Part shown: positions 1,918 to 12,255 of the stretch, piece by piece
Position numbering within the stretch: position 1 is the stretch's first letter
Layout of the letters: each line of letters opens with the position of its first letter
IMG/VR virus record: IMGVR_UViG_2537561992_000019
Direction: 5' to 3' (one strand)
Length of the DNA: 17,225 nt
DNA from: a virus
Lineage: Duplodnaviria; Heunggongvirae; Uroviricota; Caudoviricetes
Made by a program: the position numbers and the translations under genes
The notes under the pieces: model-generated
Database searches by the model: none
Told to the model about the DNA's origin: nothing
Seen by the model: the letters and a program-made list of their open reading frames with translations, nothing else

Positions 1918-2967
1918 TCAAACGATTAAATCCTGAACTTCCCTGACTGTCTGTTCAAAGCGTCCGGTCTCCAGCTCAACACCAATCGCACAACGCCCCA
2001 GTGCCATCGCCGCTTTTACCGTTGAACCTGAACCCATAAAAAAATCTGCAACCAGGTCTCCCGGACGACTGCTCGCGTTGATTATCTGCTGCAGCATTTC
2101 TGCCGGTTTTTCGCACGGATGTTTCCCTGGATAGTACTGCACCGGTTTATGCGTCCAGACATCGGTGTACGGAACCTGCGCCGTCACACCGAAATACCGC
2201 CGCAAATTTTTATATTCACTCAGCAGTTCCGTATACTGCCGGTTCAGCTCACTGTATGTGCTGACCAGCTGGTGGTGTGGCTTTTCCAGTTCCCCGCGCT
2301 GATGTTTTTCTGCCGCAACACGCGCAAACAACGCCTGCAATTTGTTGTAATCACCCTCGTTCGGTAACTGCCACTGACTGATACCAAACCAGTGCGAAGC
2401 CATGTTTTTCTTTCCGGTGGCTTCCGCTATCTGTTTTGACGTTATTCCCAGTGATTTACGCGCATCACGAAAGTAAGAAATCAGCGGGGCCATGACGTGC
2501 TGTTTTAGCTCGCGCCCCTGCTCCACATAGCCATCATCTTTCGGGCGATACGGTCCCTGATAATGTTCTGCAAACAGAATGCGCTCTGTTGCCGGAAAAT
2601 ACGCCCGCAGACTTTCCTTATTGCACCCGTTCCAGCGTCCGGACGGCTTCGCCCAGATAATGTGGTTCAGCACATTAAAGCGCTCACGCATCATGATTTC
2701 GGTGTCAGATGCCAGGCGATGACCACAGAACAGGTAAAGACTTCCGGCAGGCTTCAGTACCCGCCAGAACTGCGCCAGACACTGGTCCAGCCATTTCAGG
2801 TAATCATCGTCGCCCTCCCACTGGTTATCCCAGCCCTCGGGCTTCACTTTAAAGTATGGCGGGTCTGTGACTATCAGATCGACAGAGTTTTCCGGTAAGG
2901 TCTGGATAAATTCCAGGCAATCAGCGTTGATTAACTCACAACTGGATATTTTTACAGTATTAATCAT
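1918..2967 (-). CDS. orphan DNA methyltransferase, beta-class (N6-adenine or N4-cytosine), 349 aa
   Basis: DPPY catalytic motif near the N-terminus (LIVTDPPYF) and AdoMet-binding motif FFMGSGST near the C-terminus. No restriction endonuclease gene adjacent. Confidence 0.85.
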   Translation of the reverse strand: MINTVKISSCELINADCLEFIQTLPENSVDLIVTDPPYFKVKPEGWDNQWEGDDDYLKWLDQCLAQFWRVLKPAGSLYLFCGHRLASDTEIMMRERFNVLNHIIWAKPSGRWNGCNKESLRAYFPATERILFAEHYQGPYRPKDDGYVEQGRELKQHVMAPLISYFRDARKSLGITSKQIAEATGKKNMASHWFGISQWQLPNEGDYNKLQALFARVAAEKHQRGELEKPHHQLVSTYSELNRQYTELLSEYKNLRRYFGVTAQVPYTDVWTHKPVQYYPGKHPCEKPAEMLQQIINASSRPGDLVADFFMGSGSTVKAAMALGRCAIGVELETGRFEQTVREVQDLIV

Positions 2968-3117
2968 AGATCAATAAGCACTTCTCTGATAGGCTCATGC
3001 CGCTTTTGCGCAAAGCAGATGGGCCTGAGGTTTGCTTGTGACCCCAACGCATGAGCAGATGGCTGGCAGGTGCCGCTAACACCCACCAGCCGCCCATTAC
3101 CACAAATTAAAAAGCCT

Positions 3118-3315
3118 TCACTGCGGAAGGCGTCTGTAACAACCGAACTGATAATCTGCCAGACCCGCCATAACAAGCTGAGTCAGTATTAACTGGCAGC
3201 GTTCGCGTGAAAGGTAAGTATTCTGCGCAATTTCCCCGACGGTCGCCGGTTCGGTGACGCTTAATTCATTAAACACCACTCTGGCGGTTTCGGTCATATC
3301 CTGCTGTTTTAGCAT
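3118..3315 (-). CDS. small putative helix-turn-helix DNA-binding protein, 65 aa
   Basis: ATG at 3315..3313 (MLKQQDMTE); HTH-like stretch ATVGEIAQNTYLSRERCQLILTQL. The track ORF starts upstream but runs through the terminator hairpin. Confidence 0.4.
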   Translation of the reverse strand: MLKQQDMTETARVVFNELSVTEPATVGEIAQNTYLSRERCQLILTQLVMAGLADYQFGCYRRLPQ

Positions 3316-9175: not shown

Positions 9176-9838
9176 TCAGACAAAACCGGCCGCCTTCCGG
9201 CGCTCATATTCCTGTTTCAGCAATTCAATTGGCGTTGGCCCTGGCGGGCGTTTGGGTGCTGCCAGTTGTCGCCGGACTGGCGGAACACTGAGGCCATTAC
9301 CAACATGCTTTGCCCATTTCGTCAGCTGCCTTTCCACAAGCCGTTTTAACTCCCCTTCGGTCATCTGGCGCTCAATCCCCTTTGAACGCATCTCGAGGCA
9401 AATGTGGTACAGCACCGGCTGTGGCCACGGGTATTTATCACTCCCGTCGTACCGCCAGGATTCATTCCTCCAGCGACGGTATTCCTCCATCACGGCATCC
9501 ACCGTCAGGCCAAATGGATTTGCCCCGCTCTCCGAAATCAACGCCACAAACTCAGCCAGATCCGGAGGCCACGTTTCACCCGCCCGGCAGCGGTCCATGC
9601 ACCGACGGCAGATCTGCCGGATTTGCTGTTCAGTCATCGCGCCAATCTGAGCAATCCAGAGTTTCGACGGCGCAGCCCCGTTCTTCTGAGTCCAGCGGTT
9701 CGAATACACCTCCCCCATAAGCTCCCACAGCTTCCAGGCCGTTTCCGTTGCTGATAAATCCGTTTTCACGTTCCCACTGTTCGCGTGCAGCCCGGATTTC
9801 CTGAACTGCCCGTGATGCGGTGCCACCTGGTGCTGCAT
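9176..9838 (-). CDS. replication protein P-like (helicase loader), up to 220 aa
   Basis: C-terminal half resembles lambda P as I recall it ([17 protein letters not shown] vs ESYPWKSNAHYWLVTNLY). ATG 9838 has AGGGGG upstream; alternative starts at 9718 and 9637. Confidence 0.65.
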
Positions 9839-10667
9839 GGCTTACCCCCTTGCTGACTGGTTTTACCTGTGCCCTGACGTGCTGCACGTGGCGGGCAAAT
9901 TTCTGCTCCCACTGAACCTGCGTGAAAACCTTCCCCTCCGCCATCCAGTAATCCCGGAATGCGGCAAGCTCAGCAGGTGTAAACTCAGGCTCAGGCAGAG
10001 CCATACCCCACACTGCTGCCCGCTGTCGAAAATCCGGCGACGGTTGCCAGACTCCAGTCATCGGAAATTTCCCGATCGGTTCGCTCAGGCCGTCCAGGTA
10101 TTCAGGTTCGGCTGTCTGCAACGACGCGTCATTCAACTCACCGGTCGTAGCACTCTCGCGCATGCGCGCGTTATGTGTGGGGTTTAATTCTTTATCTGTA
10201 TCTGTATCTGTCGTGATTTGTCGTGACATATGCGTGACGCGTCGTGACTCATCGTGACAATCAGTGTTCTGCTTCCGCAGTCTTTCCCGCTCCCGCTGCG
10301 CTCTCTTGCGCTCTGCCGGGGATTTTGCGGTTTGCGAAACATTACCGTTATCCTCCTTCATCACCTGGCGTTTTTCCCATCCGGAAATAAGATCACCATC
10401 CAGAACTCGCCCCTGCATTGCATGCAAAATTGAATCAATCACGTCTTCCGTCACATCAAGCGCACTTGCTAAATCTTCCGTCGTGACATCAATGTGACCA
10501 CGTAGTGACACGCCGTGACATGTCGTGACATTTCGTGACGCACTCACCAGAAGGTGGATATACACCGCCATCACTGTTGCGATTGGCTGTCCTGAGACCC
10601 TGGCAATGGTTCGCCATTTGGGATCATTTGGCATGTCATGCCACAATCTGAGCCAGGCATTAGCCAT
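9630..10667 (-). CDS. replication initiator O-like protein, 345 aa, with origin iterons inside the coding sequence
   Basis: ATG at 10667..10665 preceded by GAGGTGA; two internal GTGAC iteron arrays; immediately upstream of the P-like gene. Confidence 0.7.
   Translation of the reverse strand: MANAWLRLWHDMPNDPKWRTIARVSGQPIATVMAVYIHLLVSASRNVTTCHGVSLRGHIDVTTEDLASALDVTEDVIDSILHAMQGRVLDGDLISGWEKRQVMKEDNGNVSQTAKSPAERKRAQRERERLRKQNTDCHDESRRVTHMSRQITTDTDTDKELNPTHNARMRESATTGELNDASLQTAEPEYLDGLSEPIGKFPMTGVWQPSPDFRQRAAVWGMALPEPEFTPAELAAFRDYWMAEGKVFTQVQWEQKFARHVQHVRAQVKPVSKGVSHAAPGGTASRAVQEIRAAREQWERENGFISNGNGLEAVGAYGGGVFEPLDSEERGCAVETLDCSDWRDD
10211..10258. repeat. iteron array A: five (T)CGTGA(C/T) repeats at 10-11 bp spacing, next to an (ATCTGT)x3 tract at 10194..10210
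   Basis: Repeat starts at 10211, 10221, 10232, 10242 and 10252, read directly. Confidence 0.6.
10483..10539. repeat. iteron array B: six GTGAC repeats at 10-11 bp spacing
   Basis: GTGAC at 10483, 10494, 10505, 10515, 10525 and 10535, read directly. Confidence 0.6.
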
Positions 10668-10735: not shown

Positions 10736-11161
10736 TCAATGCACGACAACAGCATTACCAGGCTGACCACCACTGTTAGTCAGGGTGCCCCAGGCGATCG
10801 CCGCTGCGACAAAATCATCCACATCTTTCACCAGCCGATCCCTCCGTTCGACGATCTCACGGTAATATTCAGAGCTGTGACTGCGCATACGGGCCACCAG
10901 CAGAGGCGGCATTGCCTTTTCGATCGCCGGTAACAGAGCCTGAATTTTTTCAACAGCATCAGGGGTGTCTTTATCCAGCCAACGGAAAATTTTCTGGGTA
11001 TTACGAGCCAGGGCTTCCGGATGGCTGTCGTCGTACAGTTCCGGGAACGTCATCCCCAGCTCGAAATAAGTCCGGGCTATTTCAGCTGCAGGAACTTTCT
11101 CACCGTCCGGATAGGCCCAGGCATTGATCGCCATGCGGATGTGCTCATGTTTGATTTTCAT
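10736..11161 (-). CDS. YdaT-like protein at the cII position, 141 aa
   Basis: Starts MKIKHEHI...; its ATG overlaps the stop of the cro 3' fragment (ATGA). Family call is from recollection. Confidence 0.5.
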   Translation of the reverse strand: MKIKHEHIRMAINAWAYPDGEKVPAAEIARTYFELGMTFPELYDDSHPEALARNTQKIFRWLDKDTPDAVEKIQALLPAIEKAMPPLLVARMRSHSSEYYREIVERRDRLVKDVDDFVAAAIAWGTLTNSGGQPGNAVVVH

Positions 11162-11350: not shown

Positions 11351-12255
11351 TTAAGCAGCCATCTGATGATATTTTTCCCTGAAGGCTGCCGGGGAGATAT
11401 TCCCCAGACGAGAGTGACGACGCTGACGATTGTAGAAAATCTCAATGTATTCCCGTATTACTGAGATGGCTTCATCCCGGTTATTAAAACGATAGTGGCT
11501 CAGGCTCTCATTTTTCAGCGTTCCCCAGAAGCTTTCCATCGGAGCGTTGTCGTAACAGTTACCTTTACGCGACATTGATGTTTTCAGACCAAACTGCTCC
11601 TGTATGACCCGGTAATCGTATGCGCAGTACTGTGAACCTCGATCAGAGTGGTGGATTAGCCCGGCAGGTGGGCGCTGGCTCCTGAGCGCCATAAACAGAG
11701 CTTTACCTGTCAGCTCTTTTGTCATGCGCTCTCCCATGGCGTAGCCGACAATTTCGCACGTATAAACATCTTTGATGCCAGCGAGGTACAACCATCCCTC
11801 CTGTGTGGCAACATACGTCAGGTCCGCCACCCAGACCTGATTTGGTGCTGTAGGAGCGAACGTCTGGTTCAGCAGATTTGGCGCAACTGGCAGATTGTGG
11901 TTCGAGTTCGTAGTCGCTCTGAACTTGCGTTTCTGCTTACAGCGTAGCCTTAGCTCCTTACGAAGACGTGCCAGTCGGTCACGACCAACGATGATGCCAT
12001 TCTCTGCCAGCTCCGTCTGGAGCCGCCGGGTTCCATATGTTTCGCGAGTGCGGATATGTGCCACCTTAATCTCCAGTTTTAGCCGCTCATCACTTTGTTT
12101 CTGTCTGAGGGTTCATGCTGTACCCAGTTGTAATAACCGCTCCTGGATACACCAAATACCTGACACATCGCTTCAATGGGAAATTGTTGTCGCCATTGTT
12201 CGATTAACGCGTATTTTTCAGCGACTCCTGTGCAAAATACGCTGTTGCTTTTTTT
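11351..12255 (-). pseudogene. IS3-family transposase orfB, frameshifted by a 1-bp deletion
   Basis: TTT at 12098..12100 where copy 2 has AAAA at 14086..14089, truncating the OrfAB frame. Confidence 0.7.

Follow-up and report, generated by a model that had tools for sequence, protein, structure and literature searches.

The question raised by this locus is whether two neighbouring replication genes truly share some 200 nt of DNA in two reading frames and, if so, where the second gene starts. The window (the whole 17,225-nucleotide stretch of viral DNA that was analysed, IMG/VR record IMGVR_UViG_2537561992_000019) carries a replication-initiator frame, referred to here as O, followed by a frame resembling lambda P, and in the ORF listing all genes in this part of the window lie on the minus strand. 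An earlier note, made from the letters alone, had described O as open to 9630 and P as running from ATG 9838, and both coordinates proved exact on the minus strand. The AGGGGG site that it had placed before this ATG was found at 9850-9845, 6 nt ahead, and the two alternative P starts that it had named, 9718 and 9637, are both in-frame ATGs. The features are listed below.

9630 to 10667, minus strand: putative initiator or replisome organizer gene, ydaU-like; the upstream ORF (O) runs from GTG 10673 (347 aa) or ATG 10667 (345 aa) to TGA 9632-9630.
9176 to 9838, minus strand: downstream P ORF, 220 aa, predicted lambda-P-family helicase-loader gene (PF06992, PHROG 109, AF2 fold).
9845 to 9850, minus strand: Shine-Dalgarno (SD) sequence AGGGGG for P, within the O coding sequence, 6 nt before ATG 9838.
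9838, minus strand: first in-frame ATG of P (M1).
9716 to 9718, minus strand: alternative in-frame ATG of P (M41), used in many 180-aa database annotations, with a moderate SD.
9635 to 9637, minus strand: in-frame ATG of P (M68), the RefSeq/PGAP start, giving 153 aa and an 8-nt ATGACTGA overlap with O.
9630 to 9838, minus strand: dual-coding O/P overlap, 209 nt, O residues ~279-347 and P residues 1-70.
9759 to 9838, minus strand: 5' part of the overlap, O-dominated, with the O linker and conserved helix (9818-9759) and the P leader, residues 1-~27.
9633 to 9758, minus strand: 3' part of the overlap, P-dominated, with P A34-A67 and the O acidic tail, residues 306-347.

O codons begin 1 nt ahead of P codons, and the codon positions are named accordingly (P1=O2, P2=O3, P3=O1). 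The acidic tail of O includes EPLDSEER at 9701-9678 (minus strand). An open P frame is not improbable in a single sequence, and the significance of the overlap therefore rests on comparative data and not on ORF geometry. The P frame over the 3' end of O stays open in 91% of O synonymous recodings in the window, and over the O-constrained 5' part it is open in ~66% of recodings on average across loci; this resampling being uninformative, the open P frame over the 5' overlap was dropped as evidence.

The downstream gene follows immediately after the replication-initiator gene in a lambdoid early operon, and its profile matches and predicted fold identify it as a lambda-P-family helicase loader. 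The P ORF scored 59.6 bits against Pfam PF06992 (cut-off 26), with a match beginning at residue 55, and P residues 20-219 matched PHROG 109, "P-like helicase loader" (E=4.9e-62). An AF2 model made from homologue alignment A2 was of moderate confidence (mean pLDDT 70); the top three Foldseek matches in the PDB were the lambda P chains of 9oa1 (E=1.3e-5, 212 columns), and lambda P domain III (8v9s) followed more weakly at rank 6 (E=0.054, 74 columns, rmsd 1.2 Å). BLASTP of the 220-aa ORF against lambda P aligned residues 85-192 only and so failed to place the P N-terminus, a task left to family profiles and alignments of homologues. The family profile matched PDB lambda P from ~residue 68. The earlier suggestion that similarity begins upstream of 9637 is thus borne out by PF06992, whose match starts 13 aa before M68, and by PHROG 109, and is not borne out by either direct comparison with lambda P.

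Alignment of 28 P sequences, with identity down to 46%, revealed eight invariant positions (W38, R48, W49, K52, N53, G54, P57 and W61). Within the N-terminal half, conservation is strongest over residues 34-67, and an AW-x-x-W motif upstream of Met41 is also conserved. Residues 1-33 are poorly conserved, and pLDDT values below 50 over residues 1-30 predict disorder, which fits the disordered domain I, the N-terminal "lasso", of lambda P (PMC12661323).

The upstream protein is, judged by its domain content, a DnaT-domain replisome organizer and not a lambda-O homologue. Residues 203-269 of the initiator match the Pfam DnaT DNA-binding domain PF17948 (63.6 bits), the only domain found in the Pfam search, in which PF04492 (Phage_rep_O) gave no match to the window initiator. 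Matches to PHROG 1408/3729 (replication initiation protein) were also obtained, and the DnaT equivalog NF002770 scored 93.1 bits against a cut-off of 201, with residues 194-271 alone matching. The label "O" in the earlier note is therefore sound as a functional analogy and unsound as a statement of homology. The initiator is probably 345 aa long, beginning at the RefSeq start ATG 10667, which is preceded by GAGGTGA (anti-SD pairing -6.9 kcal/mol); GTG 10673, the longest-ORF start, lacks an SD (-3.0 kcal/mol). Iteron-like direct repeats occur inside the initiator gene at window positions 10210-10259 and 10480-10540, as 10-nt GTCGTGACAT units and 19-nt GTCGTGAnnnnnTCGTGACA dyads, in five copies, three of them at 10-nt spacing. 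The lambda origin, ori-lambda, sits inside O, and by analogy these repeats are probably the prophage replication origin within the initiator gene.

The stretch is 100% identical in every complete E. coli genome among the matches listed (330 records at >=99%), one of the identical copies lying in a prophage of strain O26:H11 11368. When one genome per species was scanned, 39 loci encoding relatives emerged. In 32 of these, from ~18 Enterobacterales genera, a long upstream ORF overlaps P, always in the same relative frame, over 149-227 nt, and the upstream ORF stops 35-83 nt past the P RWxxKNG motif (68-83 nt in nearly all loci). Both frames are intact in all 33 loci (the window plus these 32), which are phylogenetically non-independent. 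Four further loci have lambda-type P genes with 4-17-nt overlaps. In two (L031 and L038) P borders on unrelated host genes, has no overlapping gene ahead of it and retains the AWxLW..RWxxKNG region; they serve as controls for the persistence of the P N-terminus without O and are not intact O-P modules lacking the overlap. Both are prophage remnants adjoining PP-loop and PTS genes. A scan of viral contigs returned close relatives only (92-100% identity) and no new distant controls; its results served the polymorphism analysis given below.

In the one remaining locus (L036, Leclercia adecarboxylata NCTC13032, LR590464.1, ~2938-3189) the frame is disrupted, and P runs into the initiator C-terminal frame (...AWHLWQVMGGNILEPVDAEEWGRTFGALDSPDRFDD). 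This sequence indicates an indel within the overlap, and either the module is a pseudogene or a homopolymer was misread in long-read sequencing.

The domains of the upstream initiators differ between loci, with Phage_rep_O (PF04492) in L020, which has the same tail and overlap as the window, HTH_36/DnaD_N in L021, DUF1376 in L022 and L024, and DnaT in the window; the upstream ORFs of L023, L035 and L039 have no Pfam match. The C-terminal helix (ES.A..Q-I/V-R..RE.W.RE), the tail and the overlap are common to all these initiator types, and differing initiator N-termini before the common helix and tail were seen in L020-L025, L029, L035 and L039. Comparison of the loci places the mosaic breakpoint inside the initiator gene, upstream of the P ribosome-binding site. 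The initiator tail and P may form a cassette that moves behind initiator DNA-binding domains of at least four unrelated kinds (Phage_rep_O, HTH_36/DnaD_N, DUF1376 and DnaT-type).

How the two frames divide the shared DNA was examined by nucleotide diversity per codon position between genera. Where the DNA codes for O alone (the DnaT domain), diversity peaks at O3 (0.51-0.64, compared to 0.11-0.40 for O1 and O2). Over the 5' part of the overlap (9838-9759), O3 is again the highest (0.55-0.66) and O2 the lowest, and O residues 286-305 (9818-9759) carry this O signature. For the remainder of O, starting with residue 306, the highest value shifts to O1 (=P3; 0.43-0.54) and the lowest to O3 (=P2; 0.19-0.30), which is a P signature. 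Across P residues 36-67 the diversity at P1/P2/P3 is 0.34/0.28/0.51, and across P-only residues 74-110 it is 0.32/0.26/0.63. Polymorphisms among 54 closely related haplotypes were sorted into those synonymous in O and nonsynonymous in P and those synonymous in P and nonsynonymous in O, with the following counts.

First 81 nt of the overlap: 11 synonymous in O and nonsynonymous in P, 2 synonymous in P and nonsynonymous in O.
Last 128 nt of the overlap: 6 and 17, respectively.
Flanking O-only DNA: 25 and 6, respectively.
Flanking P-only DNA: 7 and 31, respectively.

The two halves of the overlap differ significantly (11:2 versus 6:17, Fisher exact p=0.0014). Evolution is O-like over the first ~80 nt and P-like over the last ~130 nt. 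The conserved O C-terminal helix sits where P is unconstrained, and its conservation is therefore not a by-product of P. Each half of the overlap displays clear selection for one frame and indirect signs of the second, namely stop avoidance and a Glu-codon bias for the O tail, and a conserved start alone for the P leader.

These indirect signs bear on the most probable of the alternatives, in which the overlap is real and the last ~40 O residues are a functionless read-through tail that ends at the first stop P allows. We regard it as rather unlikely, though it deserves to be taken seriously. The O1 (=P3) positions are the most variable in this part, and 17 of 29 close-relative changes there are nonsynonymous in O only. 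Most of the seemingly conserved O tail residues are forced by P invariant codons: the O tail motif is the +2 reading of P SNRWTQKNG, its conservation being largely imposed by P, and R/W variation in the tail reflects the synonymous AAC/AAT choice at P Asn53. At four-fold degenerate P sites, the O first-codon positions are nearly saturated, so constraint at the amino-acid level on the last ~40 O residues is weak. Against a passive tail, the O stop keeps its position to within ~15 nt in almost every locus. When P is recoded synonymously, the O frame reaches its native stop in only ~24% of trials per locus, and no earlier O-frame stop was observed in the P-constrained part of the 33 loci against 42.6 expected (~1.2 per locus), a deficit that is partly built into the definition of an ORF end as the first stop; the same frame in P-only DNA has about the expected number (251 observed, 273 expected). 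Furthermore, P codons that precede AA, AG or GA have their third base strongly biased to G, giving Glu in O, and the K52 codon is AAG in 30 of 33 loci compared to 35% AAG elsewhere. This bias is absent where O does not overlap, with AAA at K52 in both L031 and L038 and O-frame stops in L038. Together, the sequences suggest that constraint on the O tail is weak and acts mostly on length and acidity.

The start of P is best placed at ATG 9838 by the comparative evidence. Calculated anti-SD pairing is -11.8 kcal/mol at 9838, -6.5 at 9718 and -3.1 at 9637, with a background mean of -3.5. An ATG equivalent to 9838 is present in every one of the 33 loci and of the 55 close haplotypes; its apparent loss from four haplotypes was rejected as an alignment-gap artefact. 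With few exceptions among the 33 loci, GGAGG, GAGGT or AGGGG lies 5-9 nt before the P ATG, and O mostly reads it as Gly-Gly. The O codon that supplies the "AT" of this ATG is CAT in 16 loci, AAT in 14, TAT in two and GAT in one, and never NAC, whereas elsewhere in these genes His, Asn and Tyr are encoded with a final C in 53-59% of cases; the O codon after NAT begins with G in all 33 loci. Given that the codon is always NAT and the next one G-initial, the O residue (H, N, Y or D) is free to vary while the ATG stays fixed. From these conserved signals we infer that ATG 9838 is actually used. Translation of P residues 1-33 is likewise inferred from the conserved ATG and SD, together with the need for a start before W35, and not from protein conservation. 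The earlier note had argued for a real out-of-frame overlap of at least 88 nt, and the homologues favour the longest option, 209 nt from ATG 9838.

NCBI holds three P starts for identical DNA, giving 153-aa, 180-aa (9718) and 220-aa (9838) products. A start at ATG 9718 (Met41), with a functional overlap of 89 nt and an upstream frame open by chance, appears improbable to us. It is used in many GenBank and PGAP records from other genera, Met41 is kept in at least 90% of homologues, and the ATG is preceded by an SD-like GGGAG, whose pairing energy exceeds the background. The poor conservation and predicted disorder of P 1-33, as well as the proportion of recodings (~66%) in which the P frame over the O-constrained part is open by chance, would also agree with it. 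This GGGAG is, however, just 3 nt from the ATG, and Met41 is replaced by Leu in L022 and L025 and by Ala in P0103. Conserved W35 and invariant W38, the tryptophans of AW-x-x-W, both precede Met41, and the PHROG 109 alignment already begins at residue 20. The upstream ATG with its SD in 33 of 33 loci and the NAT-never-NAC signature would otherwise be unexplained.

The RefSeq model, in which P starts at ATG 9637 and is coupled to O through the 8-nt overlap, is very unlikely. This is the PGAP annotation, and the 153-aa P of this exact sequence, found in at least 1000 contigs, is the commonest form in NCBI; the lambda O/P overlap is likewise short (4-nt ATGA), and ATG 9637 is kept within the Escherichia-Klebsiella-Enterobacter subgroup and by all 55 close haplotypes. 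However, Met68 is Leu, Cys or Phe in many homologues, and the site lacks an SD, its pairing energy being at background level. The P-frame codon-position signature extends into the DNA upstream, and the late start would remove the most conserved N-terminal residues, the eight invariant positions included. In lambda, deletion of P residues 9-86 abolished function (PMC3640518). The homologue alignment that the earlier note had called for to place the P N-terminus supports ATG 9838 and disagrees with the RefSeq start, and its alternative that P starts at 9637 in homologues fails on the variable Met68 and on residues 34-67 upstream. The other alternative raised, an indel introduced in 9630-9840 by sequencing or assembly that falsely extends O or P, has a negligible probability even though L036 demonstrates that indels can occur here, given the identical sequence in the listed independent complete genomes, the same two-frame layout in 32 diverged loci and the separate selective signature of each frame.

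The geometry of the ORFs and its conservation, the signals at the start site and the change of selective signature were read directly from the data. The reading that we prefer, and hold to be highly probable, is that of a genuine, maintained same-strand overlap in a Rac-like lambdoid prophage replication module with P starting at ATG 9838. The initiator would be translated through to TGA 9630, and P would be translated independently, at a frame offset of +1, from its own strong site (AGGGGG-N6-ATG 9838), placed in a variable Gly-rich linker of the initiator. The first ~80 nt would be held mainly by the conserved C-terminal helix of the initiator, with P reading a disordered, poorly conserved leader comparable in position to lambda P domain I, and the last ~130 nt mainly by the conserved N-terminal helices of P, with the initiator reading a weakly constrained acidic tail. 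The overlap segment would be inherited as a unit behind at least four types of initiator N-terminal domain.

It has been suggested that the C-terminal region of lambda O holds a P-binding domain, and the N-terminal portion of lambda P is assumed to hold the O-binding domain (PMC6022878). By analogy, the overlap would encode both partner surfaces, the O C-terminus and the P N-terminus, on one DNA segment. It may be, and we offer this tentatively, that the overlap serves as a linkage device, in which the docking surfaces of initiator and loader lie on the same ~200 nt and matched surfaces are thereby inseparable by recombination. A further possibility concerns expression: since the ribosome-binding site of P lies 209 nt deep within the frame translated as O, the ratio of O to P might be set by translation of O, and the Escherichia-Klebsiella clade might in addition make a 153-aa short form of P, initiated at the coupled ATG 9637.

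The gene neighbourhood, with a ydaT-like gene (10736-11161), the initiator, P and a DUF1627/ydaW-like gene, is that of a Rac-type prophage. The Rac ydaU-ydaV module of phage Rac-SA53 and the PPompW prophages has the gene order ydaT-ydaU-ydaV-ydaW as in the window and 87-89% DNA identity over the P gene and the initiator 3' part. Unlike here, P in those records is annotated either with 153 aa, overlapping the initiator by 8 nt, or with 140 aa and no overlap, which is why the long overlap is absent from them. In E. coli K-12, Rac ydaV encodes a DnaC/IstB-like ATPase and is not known to be P-like. Just upstream of the ydaT-like gene, a 237-aa ORF (11351-12064, minus strand) resembles by eye an IS3-family transposase (orfB/integrase core), and E. 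coli O26:H11 11368 has Cro/CI-type regulator genes at its position; the source strain of the window may therefore carry an IS insertion in the prophage immunity region.

The closest known system is the lambda O-P junction, where an initiator is likewise followed on the same strand by a P-family loader and the ends overlap. The lambda overlap is 4 nt (ATGA) compared to 209 nt here, the window initiator is a DnaT-domain organizer without a PF04492 match, and the P ribosome-binding site lies deep in the initiator ORF and not at its stop codon. A longer lambda O product (O') that terminates within the P N-terminal coding region is mentioned in older work as cited in PMC3640518. As far as that citation describes it, O' resembles the present case in an initiator frame continuing out of frame into P and differs in needing stop-codon read-through, where here an ordinary reading frame suffices.

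Phages are well known for long overlaps on one strand, so the feature is not new in kind. Classical overprinted phage genes include phiX174 A/B and D/E, lambda Rz/Rz1 and MS2 L. The present overlap shares with these cases one DNA stretch read in two same-strand frames under asymmetric constraint, with one frame locally dominant. Unlike them, it is a terminal overlap of two old, conserved and linked neighbours and not a young gene embedded in an older one, and the dominant frame switches mid-overlap. Our literature search found no published description of this O/P overlap, which is implicit in some GenBank records (the 220-aa form) and contradicted by RefSeq. What is new is this overlap as a well-supported case, together with the annotation correction; same-strand overlap itself is known.

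Database entries in which the two proteins are joined were also encountered. PHROG 15931 (482 positions, function unknown) matches the initiator at profile positions 1-347 and P at 279-482, and seems, from these matches, to have been built from O-P fusion or mis-joined proteins. Look-up of the 180-aa and 153-aa forms of P led to a cluster at 90% identity in which 345-aa initiators are present as well. The idea of an O-P fusion by programmed frameshift found no support among the fused database proteins inspected, of which P0098 is a deletion fusion and P0010, P0044 and P0058 are otherwise rearranged or truncated.

On the preferred reading, the RefSeq annotation starts P 67 codons late, with the loss of 67 N-terminal residues. 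Prophage replication modules of this kind are present in EHEC O26 as well as in further pathogenic E. coli, and a mis-started P affects their structural, functional and pangenome analysis. The locus would also be a clear natural case of two replication proteins, presumed by lambda analogy to interact, whose genes overlap at length at their ends, and one in which single-base changes could silence either gene while leaving the other protein unchanged. If the linkage reading is true, it would help to explain the positions of mosaic boundaries in lambdoid replication modules.
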